A stretch of DNA of 64,000 nt, taken from NCBI GenBank assembly GCA_963766885.1, contig CAVYBO010000002.1, positions 22,014 to 86,013 on the forward strand, written 5' to 3'. The translations under genes were made by a program, and so were the position numbers. Below are positions 11,109 to 30,336 of this stretch, piece by piece. Source of the DNA: an uncultured bacterium (GTDB taxonomy: Bacteria; Patescibacteriota; Minisyncoccia; Phycocordibacterales; CAIRYW01). Under the pieces are notes generated by a model. The model did not search any database. It had not been told where the DNA came from and was given only the letters and a program-made list of their open reading frames with translations. Position 1 is the stretch's first letter, and each line of letters begins with the position of its first letter.

Positions 11109-11126
11109 TTTTTATAAAAAGTTAAA

Positions 11127-11158
11127 CCGCGCAGAACGAATCTTGCGCGGTTATTTTT
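11127..11158 (+). terminator. intrinsic terminator after lysS
   Basis: ccgcgcaga-acgaa-tcttgcgcgg hairpin followed by ttattttt. Confidence 0.5.
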
Positions 11159-11203
11159 AGGGGATTGAACCCACGGCTTCTTTGCCGAGCGGAGATACCG
11201 CTA

Positions 11204-11764
11204 TTACAATTCCATGGCGGTGGCCATGAGGTATTGCATATTGCTGACCAGGTTTTCGTGGAACTTGAACCCGGGATCCTCAGGGTGAGTGAACGGACGT
11301 CCGGTTTGAAGACCTGACGGGAAGGTTTTACCTTCCGTTTCCATCCACTCCGCGAAGTCGGCGAGCTTGTCGAACCATTCCTCCGACATGGCGCCGGCGA
11401 ACTGGCCGAGTTCCTTGTTGGTGAGGGTGAACTCACAACCGAGAGCGACCGCCGCTTCCTGCCCGAAGAAGACTTCCCGCGGAAAGATGGCGTCCTGAAC
11501 ACCGCAGTAGCGGATGTCGTAGAACACCGGAGCGGCGCGAAAGGTTGTGAGTTCCCCCGCGTGCTCGATTTGCCCCAGAATGACGATCAAACTGGGGAAA
11601 GGGTTGGTGGAGTTGTAGTCGTAGTTTTCCGCGTCCGTGGGTTCCACGACGCGCCAGATTTGGCCGGACAGAATTTCCGCCGGCTTGGTTTGGTTCTGCG
11701 GCGGCATATCCAGCAAAGGATGGAGCGCCAGAGGAAGGATTTTTTTGAGGTCTGCGATTTTCAT
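11204..11764 (-). CDS. hypothetical protein encoded in a GC-rich (about 58%) patch; likely horizontally acquired
   Basis: 186-aa ORF MKIADLKKILPLALHP...; local GC far above the about 35% flanks, and the overlapping shadow ORFs in other frames are typical of GC-rich DNA; no recognisable family. Confidence 0.45.
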   Translation of the reverse strand: MKIADLKKILPLALHPLLDMPPQNQTKPAEILSGQIWRVVEPTDAENYDYNSTNPFPSLIVILGQIEHAGELTTFRAAPVFYDIRYCGVQDAIFPREVFFGQEAAVALGCEFTLTNKELGQFAGAMSEEWFDKLADFAEWMETEGKTFPSGLQTGRPFTHPEDPGFKFHENLVSNMQYLMATAMEL

Positions 11765-12023
11765 AAGTGAGTTGAGTGTGGTTGGAAGGACAATAATCCG
11801 CTTGGCAATGTGCTAGCAAGTCAATTACAGTCTTTCTTCCAAACTCAACTTATAGGTCAGCTTTCAAAGTTCTAATACTTCTATATAATAGCACTTTTTA
11901 TACAAAAAGTCAACATCAATAAAAAACATTGTAAATCCTATCTAAAATCAAATTCGTGAGGTTTTGGAAAGACCAAACCTTTTCTTTTTTATATGTGGAA
12001 AACTGTGGATTGCGCAAAACAAT

Positions 12024-12062
12024 AAGTGGTATAGAATGGTATGTAAGTGGTAAAAAGTGGTA
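12024..12062 (+). promoter_or_regulatory. MraZ-box-like direct repeats (4 x AAGTGGTA at about 10-bp spacing) upstream of mraZ
   Basis: aAGTGGTAtagaaTGGTAtgtAAGTGGTAaaAAGTGGTAag, about 35 nt upstream of the mraZ ATG; MraZ binds GTGG-type direct repeats in its own promoter. Confidence 0.5.
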
Positions 12063-12096
12063 AGTTTTTGGAGTTGAAGTTTGGTCGGAAAAAATC

Positions 12097-12531
12097 ATGT
12101 TAATAGGAGAATACAAACATTCAATAGACGAAAAAAACCGAATGTCGCTGCCAAGCAAATTCCGCAAGGAATTGGGCAAGAAAGTGGTGGCGACATACGG
12201 GCTTGAACAATGTTTGTTTGTCTACGAAATATCGGAATGGAACAGAATCGCTGAGGATATTTCAAAGCTTGGAATGTTAAAAAGCGATACGCGAGAATTT
12301 AACAGATTTATGTTTGGAGGAGCGGTAGAAATTGAGGTTGATGCGCTTGGCAGAATTTTGGTTCCAGAATATCTCAAAAAATATGCGGATCTCAAGGGAA
12401 ATGCCGTGGTCATCGGAGTTCACAAAAGGCTTGAAATCTGGAACGAGAAGAAGTGGGAGGAATACAAGAAAGCGATAGTTTCAAAAGCAGATGGATTAGC
12501 AGAAAAGCTTTCGGAAGCAGGTGCTTTCTAA
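12097..12531 (+). CDS. mraZ: transcriptional regulator MraZ
   Basis: 144 aa; MLIGEYKHSIDEKNRMSLPSKFR, duplicated SpoVT/AbrB-like halves. Confidence 0.9.
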   Translation: MLIGEYKHSIDEKNRMSLPSKFRKELGKKVVATYGLEQCLFVYEISEWNRIAEDISKLGMLKSDTREFNRFMFGGAVEIEVDALGRILVPEYLKKYADLKGNAVVIGVHKRLEIWNEKKWEEYKKAIVSKADGLAEKLSEAGAF

Positions 12532-13444
12532 AGAATTTCAGAGAGAAGTGAACGCACACAAGACAGTTCTTTTACAAGAAACAATTGAAGGTTTGAAGCC
12601 GAAGCTTGGCGGAGTTTATTTAGACGGCACCATAAACGGTGCTGGCGCTTCAGAGCAATTGGCAATCCAAATTGGCAAAGACGGGACAATCGTTGGAATG
12701 GATTTGGATCTTGATGCGCTTGAAAAGGGAAGTGAACGAGTCAAGAAAACAGGAGTCAAATTTTTCGGCATCAATGACAACTTTCGGAATCTGGACAAAG
12801 CTCTCGATTCTCTAGAAATAGAAAAAATTGATGGCGCGATGTTTGACCTTGGATTATCGAGCAACCAGCTTGATTTATCGGGCAGGGGATTCACTTTTCA
12901 AAAGGACGAACCGCTTCTAATGACCTTCAAATCTAATCCAACGGAAAAGGATTTGACTGCATATGACGTAGTGAATAAATTTGAGCAGAAAAATCTAGAA
13001 ACGATTATCAGATACTACGGCGGAGAAAATTTTGCAGGACGCATTGCTCGAGTTATATGCGAAGCAAGAATACAAAAACCGATTGAAACTACTTCTGAAC
13101 TAGCAGAATTGATTTATCAAGCAGTCCCAGCAATTTACAGAAGAGGCAAGATTCATCCAGCCACCAAAACTTTTCAGGCCATCCGAGTTGTGGTGAACGA
13201 CGAGATTGAATCTTTGAAGGAAGGTTTGGAAAAATCACTCGAAAGACTGAATTCTGGAGGAAGAGTTGTGGTGATAAGTTTTGAGAGTTTAACGGACGGA
13301 GTGGCCAAAAGATTTTTTAAAGAGAAAGCCAAAGATAAAAAGATTTTAATAATAACAAAGAAACCGATTGTTCCAACAGAAAGAGAAATTAGCGATAATC
13401 CACGATCAAGAAGTTCCAAATTAAGAATCGCGGAAAAGATTTAA
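12521..13444 (+). CDS. rsmH: 16S rRNA (cytosine1402-N4)-methyltransferase RsmH
   Basis: 307 aa; VLLQETIEGL...YLDGT.NGAG..., follows mraZ. Confidence 0.9.
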   Translation: MLSKEFQREVNAHKTVLLQETIEGLKPKLGGVYLDGTINGAGASEQLAIQIGKDGTIVGMDLDLDALEKGSERVKKTGVKFFGINDNFRNLDKALDSLEIEKIDGAMFDLGLSSNQLDLSGRGFTFQKDEPLLMTFKSNPTEKDLTAYDVVNKFEQKNLETIIRYYGGENFAGRIARVICEARIQKPIETTSELAELIYQAVPAIYRRGKIHPATKTFQAIRVVVNDEIESLKEGLEKSLERLNSGGRVVVISFESLTDGVAKRFFKEKAKDKKILIITKKPIVPTEREISDNPRSRSSKLRIAEKI

Positions 13445-13492
13445 GAGAAATTTAATAAAAAAATTTAAAAATTAACAAAATAAAAAAATACC

Positions 13493-13792
13493 ATGACAAG
13501 CATGCCATCTCAGTACAAATTCAAAAAAACTTTCTGGATGTTTTCCAGTGCGTCTTTTGGCATGATTGTTATTTATGTTTTTCTTGTATTTTTCACTGTT
13601 TCCCATACTCTTTCAAGGGAAAATAGTGAAAAATCAATTCAAAATATCCTTTCAAATATAAGCGAGAAAGAATCCACTTATATGAGCCTTGAGGCTTCTA
13701 TTACGCCAGATCTTGCCACAGCCAAAGGATTTGTAGATGCAAATAACACTATAGTCGTCAGGGCGGGAGCAACTTTGACTATGCGCAATTAA
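13493..13792 (+). CDS. ftsL: FtsL-like cell division membrane protein (by position)
   Basis: 99 aa, single TM, sits between rsmH and ftsI as in dcw clusters. Confidence 0.45.
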   Translation: MTSMPSQYKFKKTFWMFSSASFGMIVIYVFLVFFTVSHTLSRENSEKSIQNILSNISEKESTYMSLEASITPDLATAKGFVDANNTIVVRAGATLTMRN

Positions 13793-13799
13793 TTAAATA

Positions 13800-15497
13800 A
13801 TGAAATTTCTCAACCCAATCAGGCTAATATCGATTTTAATCATATTGGCGGGTTTTATCTTTGTCTTAAAACTTTACGACATACAAATTGTCAAACATAA
13901 TGAATATGTTCAAATCGCCAATAATCAGTACCAAAGACCGCAGGGATTTTTTGATAGAGGAACAATATATTTTGAGGATAAAGACGGCAATAAAATATCG
14001 GCGGCTACAGTAAAATCAGGATATATTCTTGCTATAAATCCAGAACTTATTGTTAATAAGCAAGATGCTTACAATAAACTATCATCGGTTGTAAGTGGTA
14101 TTGATAAGACGGATTTTTTAGACAAAGCCTCAGAGCAAGATACATATGAAGTAATTCAAAAGGAGGTTGATTCTGATACAGGAAAAAAAATACAAGCACT
14201 CAATATTTCAGGAGTAATTCTTGATAGTGACAACTGGAGATTTTACCCTGGAAATTCAACTGCTTCACAGGTGCTCGGCATCGTTGGCTATCAGGGCAAT
14301 GATTTGGCTGGAAGGTATGGTTTGGAAGAAGAATATAACTCTGTTTTGGAAAGGAATCAGAGCGACCTTTATACTAATTTTTTTGTTCAAATATTTTCAA
14401 ATATAAAATCAAGCGTGGACTCTGATAATTCAGAGGGAGATATTGTTACAACAATTGAGCCGAATGTTCAAGCTGCTCTTGAAAATACTCTTCAGAAAAT
14501 TCAAACAACATGGTCTTCCGAAGAAACAGGCGGCATTATAATGAATCCGCAAAACGGAGAAATAATCGCCATGGCTGCGTATCCCAATTTTAACCCCAAT
14601 GATTTCTCAGATGTCAGTTCTGTTGGTGTGTTTAAAAATCCATTAGTTGAAGATGTTAGAGAAATGGGCTCAATAATGAAAGTTGTAACTATGGCTTCTG
14701 GAATTGATGCTGGCCTTGTAACTGCCTCCACAACTTATGATGATGTTGGATATGTGAAAGCGGACGGCAGCACAATTTATAACTTTGACAAGCAAGGAAG
14801 GGGAGTGATTACGATGCAGACTGTACTTGATGATTCGCTCAACACAGGCGCATCGTTTGTAGAGCAAAAACTTGGCAACAAAAGATTTACGGACTATTTT
14901 TTTAAGTTTGGTCTTGGTGAAAAAACCAATATTGATTTGCCGGACGAAGCGCAAGACCTCGTTTCAAATCTTCAAAGCACTAGAGATATTGAGCATATTA
15001 CTGCTTCGTACGGACAGGGAATTGCCCTAACTCCAATTGCCACTGCCCGAGCCCTTGCTGCTGTGGCCAATGGCGGGTATTTGGTCCAGCCTCACGTTGT
15101 CAAAGAAGCCGATCCTATTGAAGGAATTCCTTATTATCCATTTGCCAGCTATAAGCCGGTACAAGTGATTTCAAAATCTGCTTCACAGAAAGTAACGGCA
15201 ATGCTTATAAACGTTGTTGATACAGCTCTGCTTGGGGGGGCAGGAAAGAATCCACACTATACTGTTGCTGCCAAAACTGGTACAGCTCAGATTCCTTCAC
15301 CAAGTGGAGGATATTATTCTGACAGGTATCTTCACTCTTTCATGGGTTATTTTCCTGCTACAAACCCTCAATTTTTAATTTTAATGTATACTGTTTACCC
15401 AAAAACGCAGTTATATGCAGCGTCAACCCTGGCACAGCCGTTTTTGGACTTGAGCCATTTTATTATAAATTATTACTCAATCCCGCCTGACAGATAA
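13800..15497 (+). CDS. ftsI: peptidoglycan D,D-transpeptidase FtsI (PBP3)
   Basis: 565 aa; N-term TM, SxxK (SIMKV), SxN (SLNTGA), KTG (KTGTAQ). Confidence 0.85.
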   Translation: MKFLNPIRLISILIILAGFIFVLKLYDIQIVKHNEYVQIANNQYQRPQGFFDRGTIYFEDKDGNKISAATVKSGYILAINPELIVNKQDAYNKLSSVVSGIDKTDFLDKASEQDTYEVIQKEVDSDTGKKIQALNISGVILDSDNWRFYPGNSTASQVLGIVGYQGNDLAGRYGLEEEYNSVLERNQSDLYTNFFVQIFSNIKSSVDSDNSEGDIVTTIEPNVQAALENTLQKIQTTWSSEETGGIIMNPQNGEIIAMAAYPNFNPNDFSDVSSVGVFKNPLVEDVREMGSIMKVVTMASGIDAGLVTASTTYDDVGYVKADGSTIYNFDKQGRGVITMQTVLDDSLNTGASFVEQKLGNKRFTDYFFKFGLGEKTNIDLPDEAQDLVSNLQSTRDIEHITASYGQGIALTPIATARALAAVANGGYLVQPHVVKEADPIEGIPYYPFASYKPVQVISKSASQKVTAMLINVVDTALLGGAGKNPHYTVAAKTGTAQIPSPSGGYYSDRYLHSFMGYFPATNPQFLILMYTVYPKTQLYAASTLAQPFLDLSHFIINYYSIPPDR

Positions 15498-15503
15498 TAC
15501 AAC

Positions 15504-16796
15504 ATGAAAAATTATTTAAAAAAAATCATTGTTTTTATTCTTACAATCGAGGCTAAGCTTGTCCTAAGGAAATACAAGCCTAAAATTATTGCTGTCACGG
15601 GAAGCGCCGGCAAGACATCCACCAAGGACGCTATTTATACCGCTATTTCTTCATCGCTTCATGTTCGCAAAAGCGCCAAAAGCTACAACAGCGATATAGG
15701 AATTCCTCTGACCATTCTTGGCCTTGAAAATCCTTGGAATAATTATAAAAAATGGCTAACAAATATTCTAAAAGGCGCCATTGTTGCTTTGAAGAAGCAA
15801 AAATATCCAGAATATCTTGTTCTTGAAATCGGCGCAGACAGGCCAGGAGAAATCAAGCGTCTTATGAAATGGATTCACCCCGATATCTCAGTGGTTACGC
15901 TTATAGGCAAAGTGCCAGTGCATGTTGAGTTTTACGATTCCGTTGAGAGTGTTATAAAAGAAAAAAGTGAAATTATAAAAAATCTCAAACCGGATGGTTT
16001 TGCGATTTTGAATGCTGACGATGAGGATGTGCGCGATATGAGGCATTTAACAGGCGCCAAAACGATAACATTCGGCATAAAGAATAAGGCAGATGTTTCT
16101 GTTGTTTTTCCGTCTATTATCTATGATGAATCCGGTGCGCCAATTGGCATGAGCGCCAAGATTGATGTTTCGGGATCGAGTTTTCCTATTATCATAAATG
16201 GTGCGCTTGGTATTCAGCAGATTTATCCTGTGGCCGCGGCTTTTGCTGTAGCTATGGTTAAGAATTTAAATCTTCTGGAAGTTGCCACAGCATTCAAAGA
16301 TCACGAAGTGCCAAAAGGCAGAGTCAAGATTATCAAAGGCATAAAAGATTCAACTATAATTGATGATACTTACAACGCTTCTCCGGCAGCTGTTGAAGAA
16401 GGTTTGAATATTTTAAGCGAAATAAAAACTCACGGCAAAAAAATCGCAATTCTGGGCGATATGCTTGAACTTGGCAGGCATTCATCTTCTGAACACAGAA
16501 GAATCGGCGAGATAGCAGGAAAAATTTGCAATGTTGTTATTGGCGTGGGTATCCGTTCGCGCGAGCTTGCCAATGCCGCGCAAGTGGCAGGAATTTCCAA
16601 GAGTGATGTTTATTTTGTTGATGATTCAATTCAGGCGGGGGAGACCGCGGCCAAGTTGATTGACACTGGAGACGTTGTTTACATCAAAGGCTCGCAAGGA
16701 ATGAGAATGGAAAAAACAGTAGAAAAAATAATGCAGGAAAAACACAAAAAAGAAGAACTTTTGGTGCGACAAGAAAAAGAATGGTTGGAGAGGTAA
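15504..16796 (+). CDS. murF: UDP-N-acetylmuramoyl-tripeptide--D-alanyl-D-alanine ligase MurF
   Basis: 430 aa; IAVTGSAGKTSTKD P-loop, NSDIGIPLTIL, DDTYNASP, GDMLELG motifs. Confidence 0.8.
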   Translation: MKNYLKKIIVFILTIEAKLVLRKYKPKIIAVTGSAGKTSTKDAIYTAISSSLHVRKSAKSYNSDIGIPLTILGLENPWNNYKKWLTNILKGAIVALKKQKYPEYLVLEIGADRPGEIKRLMKWIHPDISVVTLIGKVPVHVEFYDSVESVIKEKSEIIKNLKPDGFAILNADDEDVRDMRHLTGAKTITFGIKNKADVSVVFPSIIYDESGAPIGMSAKIDVSGSSFPIIINGALGIQQIYPVAAAFAVAMVKNLNLLEVATAFKDHEVPKGRVKIIKGIKDSTIIDDTYNASPAAVEEGLNILSEIKTHGKKIAILGDMLELGRHSSSEHRRIGEIAGKICNVVIGVGIRSRELANAAQVAGISKSDVYFVDDSIQAGETAAKLIDTGDVVYIKGSQGMRMEKTVEKIMQEKHKKEELLVRQEKEWLER

Positions 16797-16836
16797 TATA
16801 AGTATAAAAAATAGCAGAAAACGGGAAGTAATCTGC

Positions 16837-17436
16837 TTAACGTCTTCGGAAAACTAGAGCTATTACACCCAAGGCAACGAATACGCAGTACAAAATGCTT
16901 GGCTCAGGCACGCTCATCTGGAGTGCGGGCGTTTGAGTTTCTGCTCCCGCGCTGATTTGCTGTAGAGCCGAAGTGTCTTTTGTGCTTGCAACGCTAACGT
17001 AATCGATCGCCCAAGTGTAGCTACCGGTAACCGTCGGAACGACATCGTCGAGGTTGAAGACAAATTCACGACTGGTGCCCTCTGGAATTACATACCAGAA
17101 TGCATCATCTCCGCTGATTGGAGTGGGAGCAAGCATGTCCGGATCGATGTTTTCTTCAGTGTCCAATGTTGGACTTGCGGCGACGCCGTTGATTGTGAAT
17201 GTGAATCCATCGTCACCGAGCGGAACTGATGCTCTGCGGACGTACTCAGTTTGGGTATCCGCGGAGATATTGATATCGATTCCGAAGTAACCCAATTCCT
17301 CGTAGGTGCTAGAGTACTCTGGTTTTTGCACCTCGTAGGAGGCGCATTCCGTCCAGTTCACGCTTACTTGGGTTGCGTTTGCCGAAGTGATTCCTACCCA
17401 AGAGAGTAGGACCAGTAAAGAATATTTAAAGTTCAT
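16837..17436 (-). CDS. PEP-CTERM-type secreted protein (signal peptide plus C-terminal VPEP-TM-RRR sorting signal), GC-rich
   Basis: Start at MNFKYSLLVLLSWVGITSANA (the ORF track extends further upstream); C-terminus ...VPEPSILYCVFVALGVIALVFRRR; local GC about 50% versus about 35% genome. Confidence 0.6.
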   Translation of the reverse strand: MNFKYSLLVLLSWVGITSANATQVSVNWTECASYEVQKPEYSSTYEELGYFGIDINISADTQTEYVRRASVPLGDDGFTFTINGVAASPTLDTEENIDPDMLAPTPISGDDAFWYVIPEGTSREFVFNLDDVVPTVTGSYTWAIDYVSVASTKDTSALQQISAGAETQTPALQMSVPEPSILYCVFVALGVIALVFRRR

Positions 17437-17470
17437 AATCAGAAAAACACTAACATAAATACTTAATTTT

Positions 17471-18523
17471 GTAAAGATACACGTATAGGTCCAATAGCTT
17501 GGCACCACTTTGGTGGGTTAACATCAAAGGTATGCCATACACAACAAATAAGAATATGCCGAAGATTAGGCAACAAGCAGCTGATTTAGTCAGAAGAGGT
17601 TGGAGCAGAAGAAAGGTTGGTCGATATTTGGGATTTCACCATACAGCGATATCTGAATGGGTCAGAATTGCAAAGAAAATAGGGTATCATCCCATACTAA
17701 CAAGATCATCAAGACCGAAACATCATCCCCAACAATTGGATGAAAGAATCATTAGAAAAATCGTGGAGAAAAGATTAGAGCATGGTCGATATGCGGAAGC
17801 GGTACACAGGGAGCTTCAAAACGATGGTGTGAAAGTTTCTTTGTCATCAGTCAAAAGAACTCTCGACCGGAAGAGACTCATCAAAAAGAGAAGTCCGTAC
17901 AAACGATTCCATCCTCACCAAGATCGCCCATATCCCTTGAAATCAGGCGATTTGGTGCAAATTGATACTATTCATCGGATGGTTGATGGAAAGAAAAGAC
18001 TGTACGTGTTTGTGGTCATTGATGTATTTTCAAGATGGACATACGCAAAAGCATTTGAACGGATGAATGCAAGAACAAGTATTGATTTTGTCAGAGCAGC
18101 GCAAAGAGAATCGTCCTTCCATTTTGATATGTTGCAGTCAGACCATGGACCAGAGTTTGGTAAGTGGTTTGTCTCAAATATCAAAAAGAGCCACAGGTAT
18201 ACCAGAATTGGCAAACCCAATGACAATGCTCATATCGAAAGATTCAACAGGACTCTACAGGAAGAATGCCTGGACAAAGTTCCTAACGATATTCGAATTA
18301 TCAATTGTGCTTTGAAGAAATATTTGAGATATTACAATTTTGAGCGAGTGCACGGAGGAATCAATTATTCAATTCCCATGCAGGTGGTGTGAAGCTATTG
18401 ATTAGATTACGGTATTCAAAATCTTTCGTACCAAGTTAATTGAATGGCAAAGATTTGGAGAGATGCTTTCTAAACAAGATTAGACGCTTGCAATATTTCT
18501 ATACTTTTGTACCATATTAAACA
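17471..18523 (+). mobile_element. IS481-family insertion sequence (putative ends)
   Basis: Transposase ORF flanked by imperfect inverted ends beginning TGT (17471 tgtaaagatacacgtatagg versus reverse complement of 18498-18523 tgtttaatatggtacaaaagtataga); ends are approximate. Confidence 0.4.
17499..18392 (+). CDS. IS481-family (DDE/rve integrase core) transposase
   Basis: N-terminal HTH (GWSRRKVGRYLGFHHTAISEWV), DDE triad (QIDTI, SDHGPEF, NAHIERFNRTL); the track start is TTG, internal ATGs at 17532/17556 are more likely starts. Confidence 0.8.
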   Translation: MAPLWWVNIKGMPYTTNKNMPKIRQQAADLVRRGWSRRKVGRYLGFHHTAISEWVRIAKKIGYHPILTRSSRPKHHPQQLDERIIRKIVEKRLEHGRYAEAVHRELQNDGVKVSLSSVKRTLDRKRLIKKRSPYKRFHPHQDRPYPLKSGDLVQIDTIHRMVDGKKRLYVFVVIDVFSRWTYAKAFERMNARTSIDFVRAAQRESSFHFDMLQSDHGPEFGKWFVSNIKKSHRYTRIGKPNDNAHIERFNRTLQEECLDKVPNDIRIINCALKKYLRYYNFERVHGGINYSIPMQVV

Positions 18524-18539
18524 GAGAGTACATTTAGAC

Positions 18540-18860
18540 CGAAAGCCAAGGCGGCGCACGCCGTCGAATGACGAGAGCGTAAACAAACGCAGACCAATAG
18601 CTAATGGTGGCAAGTTGCCATAGAAACGGATGGGGGGACTTGTTCCCGCTTATCATGTACCGAAGCTTTGGACGACAAGCTCTGCAGCTGTGAGACGTAT
18701 TCTCACATGACGTGGAGTGATTACTCAGGGATACTTAGTGCATCAATAGGTAGTTACGTTGGGGATTTCCGTCTCCTAGAGGCGGTCGCGTGGTAGGTCT
18801 TTTGTTTCTTTCTCTTTGAACCCTCGACGTTTCGGCGTCGGGGGTTCTACTTTTTATATC
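18540..18860 (+). ncRNA. candidate structured ncRNA (GC-rich, ORF-free, ends in an intrinsic terminator); identity unresolved
   Basis: About 320 nt at about 52% GC with no credible ORF, many local hairpins, terminal ccctcgacg-tttcgg-cgtcggggg hairpin plus T-run at 18819-18855. Confidence 0.3.
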
Positions 18861-18873
18861 TGTTTCCAAGTCT

Positions 18874-18963
18874 ATAAAATATCCCATTAGGTTGCGCCAA
18901 AAAACTATTAAAAAATATGAATAAAAAAAGCTGTGACCCAAGTGGTCGCAAATTGGAACCGAG
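18874..18963. repeat. direct repeat copy A: tRNA-Glu downstream flank plus decayed tRNA 3'-half (att-like)
   Basis: aaaatatcccattaggttgcgccaaaaaactattaaaaaatatgaataaaaaaagctgtgaccc... aligns at about 75% with 19364-19455. Confidence 0.5.
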
Positions 18964-19045
18964 TCTTGGAGAATATAAAGGTTTTTCAGGAATTTGTATA
19001 AAAAATTCGCCCATTTCTGAGCGATGATACTTCTTGGTGTTTATA

Positions 19046-19300
19046 TCACCTTGTCCGATGTCTATAGTGCGTACTCCTGTAGGCTACTGTTACCACCCAG
19101 AGAACCAAAGCCGTGATCAACACAACGATGGGGATAGTGAGTACAGGATTAACCTTGAGGAAGTAACAGACGGTACATACCAGAGCCCAGATCACCAGGC
19201 CAAACGGCGTAGCGAACAAGATGAAACAACTGACACCTATGAAGAACCCAATGAGCACAAGTCTCATTGCTGCCTTGTAGGAAGGATTTTGAATGCTCAT
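19046..19300 (-). CDS. small hydrophobic protein (2 TM), GC-elevated, between the att-like repeats
   Basis: 84-aa ORF with two clear TM helices; it overlaps a + strand ORF of poorer composition. Confidence 0.3.
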   Translation of the reverse strand: MSIQNPSYKAAMRLVLIGFFIGVSCFILFATPFGLVIWALVCTVCYFLKVNPVLTIPIVVLITALVLWVVTVAYRSTHYRHRTR

Positions 19301-19363
19301 AAATTCTGACCAAATTTAATCATTATTTTAGGAAAAGTCAAATTATATAGATTGATTCCAATT

Positions 19364-19455
19364 TTATAAAAAATCCCATTAGGTTGCTTCAAAAAACCTT
19401 TGAAAAATATGGTTAGAAAAATCTATGACCCTACCGGGAATTGAACCCGGATTTA
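19364..19455. repeat. direct repeat copy B (abuts and overlaps the 3' half of tRNA-Glu)
   Basis: ttataaaaaatcccattaggttgcttcaaaaaacctttgaaaaatatggttagaaaaatctatgaccc followed by the intact tRNA. Confidence 0.5.
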
Positions 19456-19497
19456 AGCCTTGAGAAGGCTCCGTCCTAACCGTTAGACGATAGGGCC
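19426..19497 (-). tRNA. tRNA-Glu (anticodon CUC)
   Basis: Manual cloverleaf: acceptor GGCCCTA/TAGGGTC, D-stem GTCT/GGAC, anticodon stem GAGCC/GGCTT with loop TTCTCAA, T-arm CCGGG-TTCAATT-CCCGG, 72 nt, no encoded CCA. Confidence 0.85.
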
Positions 19498-19609
19498 AAG
19501 TCAAACAATTTTACACAAAATCAAAGAAAAATCTATTTTAGATGAAACTTTTTGGTATGTGATACGATATAAAAAAGAGGTCTTTTTATTAATTTAATTT
19601 TAAAAATAT

Positions 19610-20006
19610 ATGAATAATAACAAAGTTGTGCATTTTGAAATCGTGGCCGTGGATCCTCTGCGAGCCACTGATTTCTATACAAAGGTTTTTGGTTGGGAAA
19701 TTAAAAAGTGGGAAGAAGGAGAAATGGATTATTGGATGATTTAACACTACTCCGCAAAATACTCCAGGAGCAATCAACGGCGGTTTGCGAAAGGAAATGG
19801 GAACAGATCACAAAGAAATGACTAAATCTGTAAATGGCTTTGTGTCCATTGTGGCTGTGGATTCTATAGATGATATATTAGGAAAAATAGAAAAATTCGG
19901 CGGAAAAATTATGCAGCCAAAAATGAATGTTCCAAAAGTTGGCTGGCTTGCGTATTGTATGGACACAGAGGGAAATATGTTTGGGGTATTGCAGCCAGAG
20001 ATGTAG
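19610..20006 (+). pseudogene. glyoxalase/bleomycin-resistance (VOC) family protein interrupted by a 1-nt frameshift near 19739-19744
   Basis: N-half [31 protein letters not shown]...DYWMI* (frame 2) and C-half ...TTPQNTPGAINGGLRKEMG...VDSIDDILGKIEKFGGKI...GWLAYCMDTEGNMFGVLQ (frame 0); removing one T in gaTTTaac joins them. Confidence 0.55.
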
Positions 20007-20156
20007 TTATTTGTATATTTTTGGGAAACTATGAATTGAGGCGAGGATGTCTTTGGTTTTTTGGTATTGCTCGCCTAAATAAAAAGTCCAGAAGGGGATT
20101 ATAAAAATAAATAATATTGCCGCAATTAGTCTGGAATACCATGTGACCTTGTTCCA

Positions 20157-21308
20157 TTGGATTTTTCTCATAAAGAAATTATATCAAAGTTTCAAATAAT
20201 ATATACTATTGCTATGGCAATTTTTAGAAAGGAAGCTTTAAAGCATTTTTATGAAAAATACGAGCGGCATATTGGTTCGCTGACAATTATTATCGGATTC
20301 GTTTTTGATAATGTTGCCATCCGCCAGTCTGTAATTAACACCCAAACCCAAGTATTTTTGACTTATATTATTCTAGCGGGACTTTCAATTCTTATTTTGC
20401 ATTGGATAGAGGGTAAAGAGGGGAGAAAAGAAAATTACGCAACACTGCATTTTTGGATTTTTCTTTTGATGCAGTTTAGTATTGGAAGCTTGTTTAGCAT
20501 GTTCTTTGTTTTTTATTCTCGCGGTGTATCGATTGCAACTTCGTGGCCGTTTCTGCTTTTGCTTTTTGGAAATCTTGTCGGCAATGAATTATTTAAAAAG
20601 TATTATTCGCAATTAAGCTTGCAGGTTTCGCTTTATTTTATTGGTATTTTTTCTTTCTTTATTTATTTCATGCCGACAGTACTTCATGAAATGAGCGTAA
20701 GAGTTTTTATTTACAGCGGCATCACTAGTCTACTCACAGTTTTTGTTTTTATGCGTCTTCTGGAATTAATTTCAATCCAAAGAGTCAGGAAGTGGCGACC
20801 CAGGATTGCAATCGGTGTTTTGTTTGTATATTTGTTGATAAACGTTTTTTATTTTACAAACATCATTCCGCCTGTACCGCTTGTGATGAAAGAGGGTGGT
20901 GTCTATCATAATTTTTCTGTAAATAGCGAAGGGGATTATGTGGTTGAAGCGGAACAAAAATCATGGAGCAGTGTTTTTGATGAATATCCAATATATCATC
21001 GTGCTCCGAATGAAATAGTATATGTGGTTACCTCTGTTTTTGCTCCGGCACAATTGGATACAACTTTGATTCATGATTGGCAATATTTTGATCCTGTAAC
21101 AAAAAAGTGGCAGAGTGAAAGCAAAGTAAAAGTGCCTATTGTTGGCGGCCGGGAAGGCGGTTACAGATTTTATTCACTGAAACAAAGTATTACCTCTGGA
21201 AAATGGAGAGTGGATGTGGAGACAACTCAAGGACAAATTGTAGGACAAATAAAATTTGAAATTGTTGACAGCACTTCAACTCCGAGTTTGTCTAAAGTGG
21301 TGTATTAA
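20157..21308 (+). CDS. polytopic membrane protein with a C-terminal beta-rich extracytoplasmic domain (DUF2914-like?)
   Basis: 383 aa; about 8 TM helices then a 130-aa soluble domain (GKWRVDVETTQGQIVGQIKFEIV). Confidence 0.5.
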   Translation: MDFSHKEIISKFQIIYTIAMAIFRKEALKHFYEKYERHIGSLTIIIGFVFDNVAIRQSVINTQTQVFLTYIILAGLSILILHWIEGKEGRKENYATLHFWIFLLMQFSIGSLFSMFFVFYSRGVSIATSWPFLLLLFGNLVGNELFKKYYSQLSLQVSLYFIGIFSFFIYFMPTVLHEMSVRVFIYSGITSLLTVFVFMRLLELISIQRVRKWRPRIAIGVLFVYLLINVFYFTNIIPPVPLVMKEGGVYHNFSVNSEGDYVVEAEQKSWSSVFDEYPIYHRAPNEIVYVVTSVFAPAQLDTTLIHDWQYFDPVTKKWQSESKVKVPIVGGREGGYRFYSLKQSITSGKWRVDVETTQGQIVGQIKFEIVDSTSTPSLSKVVY

Positions 21309-21310
21309 AA

Positions 21311-21520
21311 TTAATGATAGTCCTGTTTATTATTCAATATGAAATAAGCTTGCTTTAATGCGTCTTCAAGTTCAATTGTTCCATTTGTAACATTTTCCTT
21401 CAATCTATTAAGTGTCGGAATTTCATGATCATTAAATCCTATAAGAGATATTTGTTGAGTAATCATTCCAATTTCTGCCAAAACCCCTTCTTTAGTTAGT
21501 TCTATTTTTATTTCTTCCAT
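21311..21520 (-). CDS. small hypothetical protein
   Basis: 69-aa ORF downstream of and co-oriented with the 21581-21925 ORF. Confidence 0.3.
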   Translation of the reverse strand: MEEIKIELTKEGVLAEIGMITQQISLIGFNDHEIPTLNRLKENVTNGTIELEDALKQAYFILNNKQDYH

Positions 21521-21580
21521 GATGTTAATTATATCAAATAAATTTTATAAAAAATTGAACCGTTGCTTTTCAACACGGTT

Positions 21581-21925
21581 CTAGTAATCATCCATATGGC
21601 CGGCAAGCCTAAAACTTCTTTGAAGCATAGCTTCGTGAGCGAGAGCGTAACCTCGTTGACGCGCTTTTTCGATCCTTGAGATTTCCTCCAAGAAATCCTT
21701 TTCATCTTGCATAACCTTACGTCTCTTTGAGATCTTGAATTGGGCGCGCCGATTCAGTTCCTTTGCAATGTCTCTAGCATTCACACCGTGTTCAGTGGCT
21801 ACCGTGTGTATTGCCAGTCTCATCTGGATTCCTTGATCGTTTACAAGGTCTCTGGCCAAGTTGGCAAGACTGCCTATTCTCGTGTTAATAAAGGGCATTG
21901 TTTTCTCCTGCCCATAATTATGCAA
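21581..21925 (-). CDS. hypothetical protein with a possible HTH
   Basis: 114 aa (likely start MPFINTR at 21898); HGVNARDIAKELNRRAQ helix-turn-helix-like segment. Confidence 0.35.
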   Translation of the reverse strand: MHNYGQEKTMPFINTRIGSLANLARDLVNDQGIQMRLAIHTVATEHGVNARDIAKELNRRAQFKISKRRKVMQDEKDFLEEISRIEKARQRGYALAHEAMLQRSFRLAGHMDDY

Positions 21926-21948
21926 TGAATATAGATTTTATTCAATAG

Positions 21949-22395
21949 CTAAAACATCCCATCCACGACGGCTTTGACATCTCCACCGTCCGCTTTGCCT
22001 TTGAGTTCTTTCATCAAGAGGCCGATAAGCATATTAGCTTTGGATTTGTCTGTAATCCCTAGCTCTGATTTTTTAGCTTCGGCGATTTTTTTGATTTCCT
22101 CAACACCCATCATTTGGGGAAGTAGAGGTTCAAGTATCGAAAGTTCCTTTTTTTCATTTTCTGCAAGCTCCAGGCGGCCGCCTTTTTGGAATTGTTCTAT
22201 TGAATCCTTGCGTTGTTTGGAAAGACGTCTAATAACAGCGATGCAATCTTCGTCTGGAAGCGTGTCTTGAGGAGTTTTGCCTTTGGCAACAAGTTCGTTG
22301 GTAAGCGCAGTGGAAATACCTCTGTAGACGTTTAAAGCGACTTCATCTCGAGCTTTCATAGATTCTTTAATTTTTTCTCTAATTTCATTTTGCAT
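21949..22395 (-). CDS. yqeY: GatB/YqeY domain protein
   Basis: 148 aa; MQNEIREKIKESMKARDEVALNVYRGISTAL typical YqeY. Confidence 0.8.
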   Translation of the reverse strand: MQNEIREKIKESMKARDEVALNVYRGISTALTNELVAKGKTPQDTLPDEDCIAVIRRLSKQRKDSIEQFQKGGRLELAENEKKELSILEPLLPQMMGVEEIKKIAEAKKSELGITDKSKANMLIGLLMKELKGKADGGDVKAVVDGMF

Positions 22396-22409
22396 ACTAT
22401 AATACTAAC

Positions 22410-23468
22410 ATGAATACAGAGACAATTTTAATCATTATTTTTGCGATAGCAATACTTGTTGTACAAATAATTTCTCTTGTTAAATCAGGTAAAAAACAAG
22501 AAATCAAAACTGATAATACGAGTATGAATTTGCTTTTAAATCAGATAAATGAGCTTTCACGAACAATGGATTCAAAGCTCGGCGCATCTGCCAAAGAAAT
22601 GAATGAATCTGTCAGGCATCAATTTAGCGAATCGCAAAAATTAATCCGTGATATTACAAACGAGCTTGCACAAGTCAAAGAAACTGGCAAACAGGTTGTG
22701 TCTTTTACAGACCAACTGCAAAGCTTGCAAGATATTTTAAAAAATCCAAAGCAGCGCGGAGTTTTGGGAGAATATTATTTAGAGACGCTCTTAAAAAATG
22801 TGTTGCCGCCAGGAAGCTTTCAGATGCAGTATGAATTCAAAGACGGCACGATTGTGGATGCTGTGGTTTTTGTCAGAGATAAAGTTATACCGATCGATTC
22901 AAAGTTTTCTTTGGAAAATTACAATCGTCTTGTGGAGGAAAGGGATCCAGAGCGAAAAAAGCAGCTTGAGAAGAATTTTGAAAACGATTTGAAAAACAGA
23001 ATCGTTGAGACCTCAAAATACATAAAGCCGAACGAAGAAACAATGGAGTTTGCTTTTATGTTTATTCCTCACGAGGCGATTTATTACGATCTTATTACAA
23101 ACAAAATTAACGCTCAAAGCGAAGATGCAGAAAATTTGATTCAGCGTGCGGCAGGGAAGTACAAGGTAATAATTGTTTCGCCAACTTCATTTTTGGCGTA
23201 TTTGCAGACAGTACTTCAAGGTCTTAAGGCTTTGAAAATTGAAGAATCAGCCAAAGAAATCCGCAAAAACGTAGAAACTTTGGAAAAGCATTTGAGCGGC
23301 TATGCTGAATATCACAACAAACTTGGCAATGCTTTGAGCACCACTGTGAATCATTTCACTACTTCAAGCAAGCAATTCAGAATGATTGATAAAGACTTGA
23401 TGAGAATTACTGGAATCGACTCTGAGGTTGATTTGATTGAAGTGGAAAAGCCGATGTTGGAGGAGTAA
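22410..23468 (+). CDS. rmuC: DNA recombination protein RmuC
   Basis: 352 aa; N-terminal TM plus coiled coil, C-terminal RmuC nuclease-like domain (QRGVLGEYYLETLL...). Confidence 0.8.
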   Translation: MNTETILIIIFAIAILVVQIISLVKSGKKQEIKTDNTSMNLLLNQINELSRTMDSKLGASAKEMNESVRHQFSESQKLIRDITNELAQVKETGKQVVSFTDQLQSLQDILKNPKQRGVLGEYYLETLLKNVLPPGSFQMQYEFKDGTIVDAVVFVRDKVIPIDSKFSLENYNRLVEERDPERKKQLEKNFENDLKNRIVETSKYIKPNEETMEFAFMFIPHEAIYYDLITNKINAQSEDAENLIQRAAGKYKVIIVSPTSFLAYLQTVLQGLKALKIEESAKEIRKNVETLEKHLSGYAEYHNKLGNALSTTVNHFTTSSKQFRMIDKDLMRITGIDSEVDLIEVEKPMLEE

Positions 23469-24080
23469 TTGCTTTTGAAATTTTGCTTTGTTAAGCTTGG
23501 CAAAGTTATGTTCAATAAAGCCATTATTATTCTTGAAGTAAAGCCGTTTCCGCCCAGAGCTCCAGCTGATTATGTTCCCCAAAGAACCTGGGAAGAGCTA
23601 CTTGAAATTGCTGCTCAGCACGGTGATTGGATTTCGATCCAAACGCATCGATGGTTTCGGGGCAGTTTCGATCTCATCTCGCGGGCGAGAAGTCTGACTG
23701 ACAAACCGATTTTGGCCAAAGGCTGGCACACCGACGATGAGGTGGAGCAACTGATTGAAATAGGAGCAACCAATGTTCTCGTGATCAACAGGATTCCGCA
23801 TACCAGATACAACAGTCAGTGCTTGATCGAGCCATATTACCGTGAAGAGTTCTTGAGGATTCCGCCGGAATTCAAAATGGTATGGAATTCCAGAGATCTC
23901 TTTGCTCTGGAAAATCAACTACCTCAAGGTGTGAAGGAAGATTTCTCAATCATCCGAGATCTGCGTCCAGATGTCTGGCTCTGCCAAGCGTCCAACATCA
24001 AGAAAGTGACAGATATCCATCCTGAGGCCAATGCGGCGCTGATTGGGACGAATCTCGAGGAATTTGTGGCTTCGCTTTGA
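23469..24080 (+). CDS. indole-3-glycerol-phosphate synthase (TrpC)-like TIM-barrel protein, N-terminally short, GC-rich; possibly a remnant
   Basis: IILEVKPFPP, PILAKGWHTDDEVEQLIEIGATNVLVI, WNSRDLFAL resemble TrpC motifs (IIAEVKKASP / PxLxKDFIxDxYQIxEAxxxGADxVLLI / GINNRDL); only 203 aa; GC about 50%. Confidence 0.4.
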   Translation: MLLKFCFVKLGKVMFNKAIIILEVKPFPPRAPADYVPQRTWEELLEIAAQHGDWISIQTHRWFRGSFDLISRARSLTDKPILAKGWHTDDEVEQLIEIGATNVLVINRIPHTRYNSQCLIEPYYREEFLRIPPEFKMVWNSRDLFALENQLPQGVKEDFSIIRDLRPDVWLCQASNIKKVTDIHPEANAALIGTNLEEFVASL

Positions 24081-24118
24081 GGGCAAAACCTGATGAAATC
24101 CATCGGGTATTTTATTAC

Positions 24119-24146
24119 TTGCAATTCTTTAAAAAATAGCTAATAT
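24119..24146 (+). promoter_or_regulatory. putative sigma70-type promoter for rplU (TTGCAA-16-TAATAT)
   Basis: -35 TTGCAA at 24119-24124, -10 TAATAT at 24141-24146, about 10 nt before the rplU ATG. Confidence 0.3.
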
Positions 24147-24156
24147 ATAGCCTACA

Positions 24157-24537
24157 ATGCCTACAAAAACAGCCAAACAGCCGAAAAAAGAAGCAAAAAC
24201 TAAGCAGGATTCAACTGTAAGTGAATTTGCTGTTATCGAGACTGGCGGCAAACAATACAAGGTTTCTCCTGGAGAAAGTATCAAAATTGAAATAATCAAA
24301 GGCGAGCACAAAGAAGGTGAAAAAATTACTTTTGACAAAGTGCTTTTGGTTGATGATGGATCCAATACAACAATCGGTATGCCATACATTGACGGAGCGA
24401 GCGTTGTTGGTGAAATCTCAAAGATCGGAAGACATCCTAAAGTAATTGTTATGAAATACAAAGCCAAGAGCAATCGTCTCAAAAAGAACGGACACAAACA
24501 GCCTTATTTTGAAGTAAAGATTCAGTCTATACAATAA
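24157..24537 (+). CDS. rplU: 50S ribosomal protein L21 (with a Lys-rich N-terminal extension)
   Basis: AVIETGGKQYKVSPGESIKIE...FDKVLLV...GHKQPYFEVKI. Confidence 0.85.
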   Translation: MPTKTAKQPKKEAKTKQDSTVSEFAVIETGGKQYKVSPGESIKIEIIKGEHKEGEKITFDKVLLVDDGSNTTIGMPYIDGASVVGEISKIGRHPKVIVMKYKAKSNRLKKNGHKQPYFEVKIQSIQ

Positions 24538-24540
24538 TAG

Positions 24541-24660
24541 TGCAAAATAAAAAATAGTTCTCTCAATAAGCACGGAATTTTTTCTGCTGAAAAAATTCCT
24601 CGCTTCCGGCGCCAGTCGCGCCTCCAGAGTCTTTTCTCGAGAACTATTTTTTATTTTGCA
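24541..24660. repeat. 22-bp perfect inverted repeat (24541-24562 / 24639-24660) enclosing nested hairpins between convergent rplU and recR
   Basis: tgcaaaataaaaaatagttctc ... gagaactattttttattttgca; inner 10-bp hairpin ggaatttttt-ctgctg-aaaaaattcc and ggcgc-cagtc-gcgcc; the right arm overlaps the last recR codons. Confidence 0.6.
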
Positions 24661-25246
24661 GTGCTGCTTTTATAGTTTCTTTATCCACGTATTCAATCTC
24701 CGTGCCTGTAGAAATTCCGCGGCCAAGTTCGGAAATTGGAATATTAAATTCCTTCAGTTCATTTTTTATATATTCAGCAGTGTTTTCTCCTTCAGTAGTA
24801 GCGCTGAGGCCCAAAATAATTTCTTTGATTTCTTCTGGCTTAGATTTTTTGATTCTGCTTTTCAGTTCGTTGATTCTAATTTTTCTCTCTGGATTCTTTT
24901 CTAAAATAGGGAGCAATCCGCCAAGGACAAAATACTTGCCTTTAAATACTCCGCTTTTTTCTATCATCTGAAAATCTGTATCTTTCCCGACAATCATTAT
25001 TAAGTTTTCTCTTTCATTATTTGAACAAATTTCGCAAACACCTGAAGAATTATTTTTTTTGACTAAATATCGGAAACAAAATTGGCATTGTGCCGAGTTT
25101 TGAATTAATTCTTTTAGAAGTATTGATAATTCTTCAGAGTATCCTTTTGGTTTTGATACTAGAAAATAAACAAAGCGTCTGGCTTGGCGAGGTCCAATGC
25201 CTGGGAATTCTTCAAATATTTTTACAAGTTTATCAAAAGCATCCAT
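24644..25246 (-). CDS. recR: recombination protein RecR
   Basis: 200 aa; C4 zinc finger (CQFC...CEIC), Toprim domain. Confidence 0.9.
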   Translation of the reverse strand: MDAFDKLVKIFEEFPGIGPRQARRFVYFLVSKPKGYSEELSILLKELIQNSAQCQFCFRYLVKKNNSSGVCEICSNNERENLIMIVGKDTDFQMIEKSGVFKGKYFVLGGLLPILEKNPERKIRINELKSRIKKSKPEEIKEIILGLSATTEGENTAEYIKNELKEFNIPISELGRGISTGTEIEYVDKETIKAALQNKK

Positions 25247-25260
25247 AACTGCTCTATATT

Positions 25261-26652
25261 TTAAAAGGCATCATCTTGCAAAAAGTCTCCGATATTTGAC
25301 CTGTCAACATTTAGGAAGGTTGTTCGCTCTTCATCAAAGAATAAATCAATGCTTCCAACAGGGCCGTTTCGGTGTTTGTCGATATGGATTTGAGCGATAT
25401 TTTTTTTGTCGGAATCTTCGCGATATTTGTCTTCGCGATGAATAAACATAACCACGTCAGCATCCTGTTCTATAGATCCAGAATCTCTAAGGTCAGAGAG
25501 TTTTGGCCGACCGCTGCCGCCACGTTGTTCTACAGCTCGGGATAACTGTGAAAGAGCTAAAACAGGAACTTCAAGTTCACGGGCCAAGTGTTTGAGAGAT
25601 CTAGAAATTTCAGTCACTTGTTGAACCAAGTTGTCGTTATTTTTGGTTGAAACTGGTGTCATGAGCTGAAGATAATCAACAATAATCAAACCCAGACCTT
25701 TTTCACGCTTCAGGCGCCTGCCGATTGAGCGCATCTTCAAAGAATTTATTCCTGGCTCATCGTCAATATAAATCGGTGCTTTGGAAAGTCTCTCAAGAGA
25801 ATTTCTAATATTGTCAAAATCTTTGTCCGCTGAAAGTTTGCCAGTGCGGAGTTTCCAAGCATTTACTTTTGAATCTGCGGCAAGCATTCTATCTACCAAT
25901 TGTCCGGAGCTCATTTCCAAAGAAAATATTCCAACAGGAATATTGTGATTAACCGCAGCTTGGCGGGCAATGTCTAGTGCCAAAGCGGTTTTACCCATCG
26001 AAGGACGGGCCGCAAGAATGACTAAGTCTGATTTCTGAAGTCCGGAAAGCATATTATCCAAATCTCTGAAACCAGTTGGAATTCCGCGTAATGCTCCGCC
26101 TGCGTTGTGCAGATTTTCAAGCCGCTCCCAAGCTTCACCAAGAGTATCTTTTATATCAATAAATTTTCTTGAACTTCCGGATGTTGCGATTTCAAAAACT
26201 TCCTTTTCGGCTTTATCAATAATCATTTCAATTTCTTCTTCGGAAGTGTAACCCATCAAGCTGATTTTTTCTGCGGCTTCAATTAATCTGCGAAGCAGAT
26301 ATTTCTGGCGCACAAGCTCGCCGTAATAGATTGCGTTTGCAGTGGACGGCACACTCTGGACCATTTCTGTTAGATAGCTTTTGCCGCCGACAGAGTGCAA
26401 AGTCTCTTTGCTTTCAAGTTTGGTTGAAAGGGAGAGTAAATCAATTGGTTCATTTTTGGAAAATAATTCTTGCATGGAGGCAAAAATCATTCTGTGTTTT
26501 TCTGAATAAAAAGAATCTTTGTTTACAATGTCCGCAATGTCATACATCACATCAGGACGAAGCATTATGGATCCAAGGAGTGCCATCTCGCTTTCAATAT
26601 GCTGCGGCGGAATTTTTAATGTCTCTCTTTTAATAGTTGTTTTGGTCGCCAT
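25261..26652 (-). CDS. dnaB: replicative DNA helicase DnaB
   Basis: 463 aa; Walker A ARPSMGKTALAL, DnaB N- and C-terminal domains. Confidence 0.9.
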   Translation of the reverse strand: MATKTTIKRETLKIPPQHIESEMALLGSIMLRPDVMYDIADIVNKDSFYSEKHRMIFASMQELFSKNEPIDLLSLSTKLESKETLHSVGGKSYLTEMVQSVPSTANAIYYGELVRQKYLLRRLIEAAEKISLMGYTSEEEIEMIIDKAEKEVFEIATSGSSRKFIDIKDTLGEAWERLENLHNAGGALRGIPTGFRDLDNMLSGLQKSDLVILAARPSMGKTALALDIARQAAVNHNIPVGIFSLEMSSGQLVDRMLAADSKVNAWKLRTGKLSADKDFDNIRNSLERLSKAPIYIDDEPGINSLKMRSIGRRLKREKGLGLIIVDYLQLMTPVSTKNNDNLVQQVTEISRSLKHLARELEVPVLALSQLSRAVEQRGGSGRPKLSDLRDSGSIEQDADVVMFIHREDKYREDSDKKNIAQIHIDKHRNGPVGSIDLFFDEERTTFLNVDRSNIGDFLQDDAF

Positions 26653-26727
26653 GTAAAACTATTCTATCAGTCTCAAAATAATAAAAAAGCTTGAAAAAGG
26701 GGAATAGGTGTGTGTAATGTGGGGAGA

Positions 26728-26790
26728 ACAAATTTTTATTAAAAACAGGCCACCATCGCCTCTGTGGGATGGTGGCCTTCTGTTGTTTTT
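26728..26790. terminator. bidirectional intrinsic terminator hairpin
   Basis: ggccaccatc-gcctctgtgg-gatggtggcc (10-bp stem) with T-runs on both strands. Confidence 0.5.
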
Positions 26791-27190
26791 GGTTCGGTTC
26801 GAGCCCTGGTTTTTGGTCGCCTTGTGGAAACCAATCAGCAGGGTAGTTCGCCGTGCTAAAGAACCTTTCTATCACTTCTCGCGTCTGTTTGGTGATTAGC
26901 CAACAACACGTGTGCGCAATTTGTTTATTCGGTTTGCGATTACCGCCGGATTCACGTCTGCGATTGCTCGCATTTGTTATTCTGACACTTGCCCTAACGC
27001 AAGTTCCTCTCAGCCGAGTGTGCTTTTACATTTATATCCCTGCCCGCGTCGGTTTATCCAGGCCTCCAGCCTCCCCGGAGGGTTTAAGAGTAAGAGCGGT
27101 TTTGGGCGGCAGCTGCCTGATTCCGATGTCAGACTCGGTCTATCAGATCTGCTTGGCTGCCGGGCCGATGGGATCACCCCATCATAATTA
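26790..27190 (-). ncRNA. candidate structured ncRNA: GC-rich (about 52%) ORF-free region bounded by a terminator; strand and identity unresolved
   Basis: No protein-like ORF (the ORFs here are Cys/Arg/Ser-rich shadows); GC-rich helices; weak similarity to RNase P CR-II/III and CR-V on the + strand and to the 4.5S motif GCAGCCAAGGCAGAU on the - strand; none conclusive. Confidence 0.3.
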
Positions 27191-27340
27191 ATCATTTTTT
27201 TGATGTAGGTGCCGAAGTATGCAAGTTTGCCTGCAGACACTAGCTAGTTTGCATATACTCCTCGACGGAAAATAAAATACTATATTTAATTATTTTGTCA
27301 ATAGTTATGAAAGTTTGAATCCAGTTTATAATTCTCGACT

Positions 27341-29432: not shown

Positions 29433-29545
29433 AGCTGTAATTATATCTTGTTTTTTGGCGTTTTGCCTGTAATATTGCTTTAGCTAATTCGGATGAATCG
29501 GCTACCGCGCACTATGCGCTTTCAGAAAAACCAAGAAACTGTTCT

Positions 29546-30262: not shown

Positions 30263-30280
30263 ATTTCGTACAGCTTTTAA

Positions 30281-30310
30281 GCACCCAAACCTGGGTGCAA
30301 TTTTTATTTT
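30281..30310 (+). terminator. intrinsic terminator after pyrF
   Basis: gcacccaaacctgggtgc hairpin plus aatttttatttt. Confidence 0.6.
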
Positions 30311-30336
30311 ACATATTTTAAATTTGTGTTAGTTTA

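Follow-up and report, generated by a model that had tools for sequence, protein, structure and literature searches.

A GC-rich, ORF-free orphan segment closed by an intrinsic terminator in a Paceibacterota genome: a possible non-coding RNA gene or a horizontally acquired relic

Positions 18540–18860 of the 64,000-nt stretch of DNA analyzed here (the window) raise the question of whether a GC-rich, apparently non-coding segment in an AT-rich genome is an RNA gene or the remains of something else. The host belongs to the Paceibacterota (CPR): its MurF matches a database protein from a 596-kb contig with full identity, and the nearest relatives are annotated as Paceibacterota or Patescibacteria. 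The original prediction had described the segment as a structured RNA candidate next to an IS element, and had offered an uncharacterised ncRNA, an IS-associated RNA or a decayed element as explanations. We examined its composition, coding potential, folding, family membership and genomic context (Table 1), and an uncharacterised ncRNA is one possible reading of the results.

Table 1. Features of the segment and its surroundings, in window coordinates, with the basis of each assignment.
Feature	Position	Strand	Basis
Orphan ORF, 186 aa, GC 0.61, strong codon periodicity	11204–11764	−	Composition, periodicity
Orphan secreted PEP-CTERM protein gene, GC ~0.50	16837–17436	−	Pfam PEP-CTERM, codon periodicity
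IS481-like insertion sequence, ~950 bp, intact	17465–18413	+	Pfam rve, rve_3; inverted repeats; copy homology
26-nt terminal inverted repeats of the IS	17492–17517, 18375–18400		Repeat search
rve-family transposase of the IS481-like element	17499/17532–18392	+	Pfam rve, rve_3
Weak sigma-70-like promoter candidate, TTGCAA-N16-TACCAT	18488–18515	+	Read by eye
GC-rich core (~0.51), ORF-free, homolog-less	18537–18815	+	Composition, ORF, Pfam, Rfam, periodicity and MFE tests
Intrinsic terminator, stem GAACCCTCGACG / CGTCGGGGGTTC, tail TACTTTTTAT	18818–18857	+	Terminator scan, pair probability
79-nt direct repeat, 82% identical	18861–18939 / 19353–19431	.	Repeat search
84-aa membrane ORF	19046–19300	−	ORF call
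Intact tRNA-Glu(CTC)	19425–19498	−	ARAGORN, Rfam
Glyoxalase-family gene, frameshifted near 19700–19741	19610–20006	+	Comparison with relatives
Second GC-rich (0.54) ORF-free orphan, ~520 nt	26745–27265	−	GC, ORF, promoter and hairpin scans
pyrF-like (OMP decarboxylase) and pyrE-like phosphoribosyltransferase genes, ~0.55 GC	29546–31035	+	

The segment is set apart from its surroundings by composition. GC content was ~0.50–0.52 across 18537–18850, compared with a window mean of 0.385; it ranged from 0.485 to 0.51 in 200-nt windows over the segment and reached 0.523 in 300-nt windows, in agreement with the ~52% first proposed. The background of 35% GC given alongside that figure was not reproduced by the measured window mean. 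In 50-nt windows, GC jumped to 0.48–0.60 from ~18537 to ~18850 and dropped to 0.24–0.34 beyond, such that the island is bordered abruptly, at ~18537 and ~18850, by AT-rich DNA on either side.

The lack of a plausible ORF was confirmed. The longest ORFs overlapping the segment encode 38–68 aa, and none of the overlapping ORFs yielded a Pfam match or a homolog. Similarly, Pfam returned no match for 10 stop-free pieces of the segment, and a concatenation of 13 pieces covering all six frames returned nothing at E ≤ 10 against 5.8 billion proteins, implying that the collection contains no similar ORF predicted by a gene caller from homologous DNA. Comparison of the segment with the fetched loci by tblastn gave chance matches only. 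Three-base periodicity was absent (chi-square p = 0.58), compared with p = 2e-7 for the PEP-CTERM gene, 4e-4 and 3e-8 for sub-windows of murF and 1e-3 for the 84-aa ORF. Neighboring real genes spanned p = 1e-3 to 1e-10 in this test, the power of which is limited, since the IS transposase itself was non-significant. The peptide RRFGVGGST, encoded by the terminator, resembles a transposase helix-turn-helix motif; we regard this as coincidental because the underlying DNA sequences are unrelated. The segment thus shows no sign of a degraded protein-coding gene, and the earlier suggestion of a decayed element, taken in that sense, finds no backing in Pfam, periodicity or protein matches. We also considered that the segment might encode one or more very small proteins, for which short + strand ORFs upstream of the terminator are candidates, either those of 26–29 aa starting with ATG (18604 and 18630) or those of 38–42 aa starting with TTG. 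This is improbable: by eye, a Shine-Dalgarno-like sequence is absent before every such ORF, and both periodicity and homologs are missing.

The 3′ edge of the island coincides exactly with an intrinsic terminator. Its hairpin (18818–18847) comprises 13 pairs, 8 of them G-C, carries a 4-nt UUUC/UUCG-type loop, is followed directly by TACTTTTTAT, and has a pair probability of 0.99 (MFE). A Rho-independent terminator is defined by a G+C-rich stem-loop with a U-tract directly after it on the transcribed strand, and this arrangement was found at 18818–18857. The hairpin was the highest-ranked terminator-like site in the 20 kb from 10000 to 29999, in line with the clean + strand terminator that had been proposed at the 3′ end. 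The terminator functions for the + strand only, because the hairpin lacks a trailing T-run on the − strand.

On the 5′ side, the core is preceded by an AT-rich spacer of ~120 nt, in which TTGCAA-N16-TACCAT was the sole promoter-like match. This candidate agrees with the consensus at 8/12 positions and therefore went unreported by the consensus scan, for which the threshold was 9/12; it would set the transcription start near 18522–18525. Two pairs of repeats around the island were not counted as evidence, namely a 20-nt imperfect inverted repeat with 70% complementarity (18519–18538 / 18846–18865) and an 18-nt pair (18414–18431 / 19277–19294), of a kind expected by chance about once per 8 kb on a rough count.

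Structured ncRNAs are expected to fold with energies significantly below those of composition-matched shuffles. The full 329-nt stretch gave an MFE z-score of −2.75 (−2.81 for the reverse complement), and coding controls from the same window ranged from +0.7 to −4.0. The value for the whole segment is attributable almost entirely to the terminator, and upon its removal (18530–18815) the z-scores were −0.73 (+ strand) and −1.72 (− strand), well within the span of the coding controls, which places the folding energy of the remainder at chance level. Hairpins with stems of at least 6 pairs were more frequent than in dinucleotide shuffles (9 versus 4.2 ± 2.0; p ~0.03), with 13 versus 10.8 for stems of at least 5 pairs (p = 0.27) and 4 versus 1.6 for stems of at least 7 pairs (p = 0.08), so that the enrichment is at most marginal. 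Of the numerous local helices noted originally, what stands is this slight excess of longer stems, without any accompanying excess of stability outside the terminator. The label of a structured RNA is not backed, because, once the terminator is left out, folding is no more stable than expected by chance, and no homolog was recovered for covariation analysis; a conserved fold is accordingly unsubstantiated. Prediction of sRNA targets with duplexfold yielded only meaningless long-loop duplexes.

The Rfam scan that the original prediction had called for matched the segment to no known family. Searching the whole window with cmscan against 4227 Rfam families at the gathering score returned tRNA-Glu only (19426–19497, − strand), and searches of 651 nt and 343 nt at E ≤ 10 gave, as the sole chance match, the terminator hairpin against rnk_leader. 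There was no covariance-model match to RNase P RNA, SRP RNA, 6S RNA, riboswitches, T-box elements, group I or II introns, or HEARO. ARAGORN likewise reported tRNA-Glu only over the region, and no tmRNA, permuted forms included. The failure to fit the segment to tRNA, tmRNA, RNase P or SRP RNA by inspection agrees with these results.

A divergent or truncated housekeeping RNA (tmRNA, RNase P RNA, SRP RNA or 6S RNA) was nevertheless weighed as an explanation, since the segment has the size and GC content that such genes usually show in AT-rich genomes. For tmRNA, which is defined by a tRNA-like domain (acceptor stem, T-arm, CCA) plus a tag reading frame, the length and GC enrichment are similar and a tRNA-linked hot spot of integration is close by. 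In addition, the 5′ third appears by eye to be colinear with the region from PK1 to the resume codon (CCAAGG ... CGUAAA ... AAUAGCU, then GCU AAU ...). This superficial likeness was discarded because alignment to E. coli ssrA (L094) was no better than alignment of shuffles (local z = 0.99, with 80/500 shuffles scoring at least as high; semi-global z = 0.27). The segment lacks a T-arm, an acceptor stem and CCA, and the Rfam tmRNA clan was negative at E ≤ 10, as were the RNase P, SRP and 6S models on 343 nt. Motifs reminiscent of RNase P or SRP RNA (GAAAGCC, CCAAGGC) were also rejected, as the pairing needed for P4 or helix 8 is impossible. Together with the absence of a counterpart from the partial contigs of relatives that were examined, where one would be expected, these results make a housekeeping RNA very improbable.

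We then turn to the insertion sequence, the end of which (~18413) lies ~120 nt before the core, such that the segment is indeed next to the IS. It lies on the same strand as the IS, and its terminator is the first one after the transposase stop codon, both of which would fit an RNA associated with the element, or a passenger or trailer carried by it. In this respect the arrangement recalls the omega RNAs of IscB/TnpB (HEARO) and the bridge RNAs of IS110, which are non-coding segments beside a transposase gene. Unlike those systems, the enzyme here is a DDE rve-family (IS481-like) transposase, for which, to our knowledge, no such guide or regulatory RNA is known, and the segment is located beyond the inverted repeats that delimit the IS (17492–18400). 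A metagenome scan recovered 80 related IS copies (loci L014–L093; 63–81% protein identity), mostly from groundwater samples. DNA homology to these copies begins at 17446–17481 and stops at ~18400–18416, and nothing similar to 18401–18870 was found by nhmmer or blastn in ~300 kb of their flanks. The segment is therefore neither part nor companion of the IS. Judged by this comparison of copies, an association with the IS is essentially refuted, and it is the least probable of the explanations that we considered. Over 200 elements related to this IS occur in metagenomes from groundwater and sediment. One related copy (L044) lies directly beside a tRNA-Glu gene, which hints that the element may prefer insertion near tRNA-Glu.

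Homologs of the segment were not found elsewhere. Phage and plasmid records gave no match by blastn, five exact k-mers returned nothing from viral contigs, and one 22-mer returned nothing from metagenome contigs. Eight syntenic relatives with 62–77% MurF identity (L005, L006, L008–L012, L095 and L096) share the gene order MraZ-MraW-FtsI-MurF ... YqeY-RmuC-L21-RecR-DnaB. The content of the MurF-to-YqeY stretch differs in every genome, with tRNA-Glu(CTC) usually present, and the segment is absent from this syntenic region in 8/8 relatives. A MurF search of genome contigs gave distant matches only. With present data the segment is an orphan, and since no homolog emerged from the phage, plasmid, viral and metagenome sequences, the 80 IS loci or the eight relatives, it offers no evidence of conservation or covariation.

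In the window, the variable stretch holds, in order, the PEP-CTERM gene, the IS, the candidate, the direct repeat with a tRNA remnant, the 84-aa ORF, tRNA-Glu and the glyoxalase gene. The PEP-CTERM protein has no homolog except itself among 5.8e9 proteins. Its gene and the candidate are transcribed in divergent directions, and the spacer that separates them houses the IS; without the IS, the two would form divergent units separated by an AT-rich spacer of ~190 nt. We suggest that they arrived together, because these divergent units share an unusual GC content. The region upstream of the PEP-CTERM gene has been displaced by the IS.

Downstream of the candidate, the 79-nt direct repeat reproduces the 3′ flank and the final bases of tRNA-Glu(CTC). 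Its first copy starts directly after the terminator tail and is followed by a decayed tRNA 3′ half (region 18861–18975), and the second adjoins the intact tRNA-Glu. This arrangement is reminiscent of att sites remaining after an integration, or of a segmental duplication, that may have brought in the 84-aa ORF. In one relative (L096), 23 nt of the tRNA-Glu end are repeated as a partial copy ~165 nt from the gene. Among relatives the glyoxalase gene is conserved, with a length of 129 aa in L008, and its split form here may reflect either a pseudogene or a sequencing error. PHROGs and PADLOC gave no matches for the neighboring proteins. Overall, the locus resembles horizontal-island relics at tRNA genes in its variable tRNA-Glu-linked setting, its IS, the duplicated tRNA 3′ end and the orphans of atypical GC, and it differs from them in that no integrase is present in the region and the segment holds no recognisable gene remnant.

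Other parts of the window provide a comparison. Several further GC-rich islands are present and are mostly protein-coding (11204–11764, 16837–17436 and 29546–31035); the first and last of these are probably horizontal acquisitions. GC-richness is therefore not specific to RNA genes, because foreign protein genes in this window are GC-rich too. The second ORF-free orphan, located between dnaB (25261–26652) and an NTP-transferase gene (27341–28024), is preceded by TTGACA-16-TATTTT (27301–27274), the best promoter match in 20 kb, and contains a hairpin at ~26749–26780 with T-runs on both strands. It was negative in Rfam and in the periodicity test, shows no similarity to the candidate segment, and has no counterpart in relatives, in which unrelated ORFs occupy its position. 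A second unit composed of a promoter, a GC-rich ORF-free body and a terminator suggests a recurring feature of the genome. Whether this amounts to at least two species-specific GC-rich RNA genes of no known family, each with its own promoter and terminator (~330 nt here and ~520 nt at 26745–27265), is doubtful, and we would put it below the case for the candidate considered by itself.

GC-rich intergenic-region screens have yielded orphan bacterial small-RNA units (Stav et al. 2019, PMC6429828; Narunsky et al. 2024, PMC11109978). Like these units, the segment is long, GC-rich and devoid of ORFs, lies between genes in an AT-rich genome, and is bounded by a promoter-like site, here a weak one, and a Rho-independent terminator. 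Candidates in such screens are required to show covariation among homologs (PMC6429828; PMC11109978), whereas the segment described here is homolog-less, with folding stability at chance level.

On balance, we tentatively favor the interpretation that the segment is a lineage-specific, independently transcribed ncRNA of ~330 nt that was probably acquired horizontally with the PEP-CTERM gene. RNA polymerase would initiate at the weak sigma-70-like promoter in the AT-rich spacer (18488–18515), transcribe the GC-rich core (18537–18815) and be released at the hairpin and U-tract (18818–18857). The product would act as RNA, most plausibly as a trans- or locally acting regulatory sRNA, which is more plausible than a ribozyme-like molecule. 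The same terminator would halt read-through from the transposase gene of the IS, a recent insertion, before the convergent tRNA-Glu region, and the segment would have arrived by horizontal transfer together with the equally GC-rich orphan PEP-CTERM gene. An RNA gene is favored by the discrete island with sharp edges and a strong terminator at its 3′ edge, by the lack of any ORF, periodicity, Pfam or protein match, by the modest enrichment of stems of at least 6 pairs, and by the second unit of the same design. A dead gene is disfavored, because an old one would be expected to have lost its GC content and hairpin and a recent one to have kept an ORF or periodicity. Counting against an RNA gene are the lack of a homolog and the absence from eight relatives, the chance-level folding and weak promoter match, the fact that GC-richness also marks foreign protein genes, and the flux and decay of the locus, as seen in the IS insertion, the decayed tRNA copy and the frameshifted glyoxalase gene.

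Nearly as likely is an inert relic left by horizontal transfer from a donor of ~50% GC: either non-coding DNA or a gene too decayed to be recognised, which came with the PEP-CTERM gene and kept a terminator without having a function of its own. Its position in the hypervariable MurF-to-YqeY stretch, next to an orphan gene with a matching atypical GC content and with an IS inserted between the two, is consistent with this origin, as are the frameshifted gene and decayed tRNA copy nearby, the absence of conservation and of excess folding stability, and the weak promoter. Residual coding signal of any kind is absent, however, and the terminator sits exactly on the island edge. Moreover, the genome is small (596 kb; 38.5% GC), and neutral DNA in it would be expected to erode or be deleted, yet high GC and a near-perfect 13-bp terminator have been kept. 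The atypical composition and orphan sequence could also arise from an assembly artefact, that is, a chimeric join in this metagenome-assembled contig, and assemblers can misjoin at repeats such as the two that adjoin the segment, the 79-nt direct repeat and the IS. Given a contig of 596 kb, flanks that are colinear with those of relatives, and coherent promoter-like and terminator features, we consider such a join very unlikely.

For scans of this kind, the locus offers two lessons: a GC-rich stretch in this genome is as apt to be a foreign gene as an RNA gene, and visible hairpins in a sequence of 52% GC are near chance expectation. If the segment is inert foreign DNA, it is an ordinary further sign that horizontal transfer and IS activity have affected a tRNA-linked hot spot. 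If it is transcribed and functional, it would represent an orphan RNA in a reduced 596-kb genome, where one would expect little dispensable DNA, and would add to the very sparse list of CPR-specific non-coding RNAs. The existence of two such RNA genes, if true, would be evidence that orphan ncRNAs are acquired and retained by ultra-small symbiotic bacteria.
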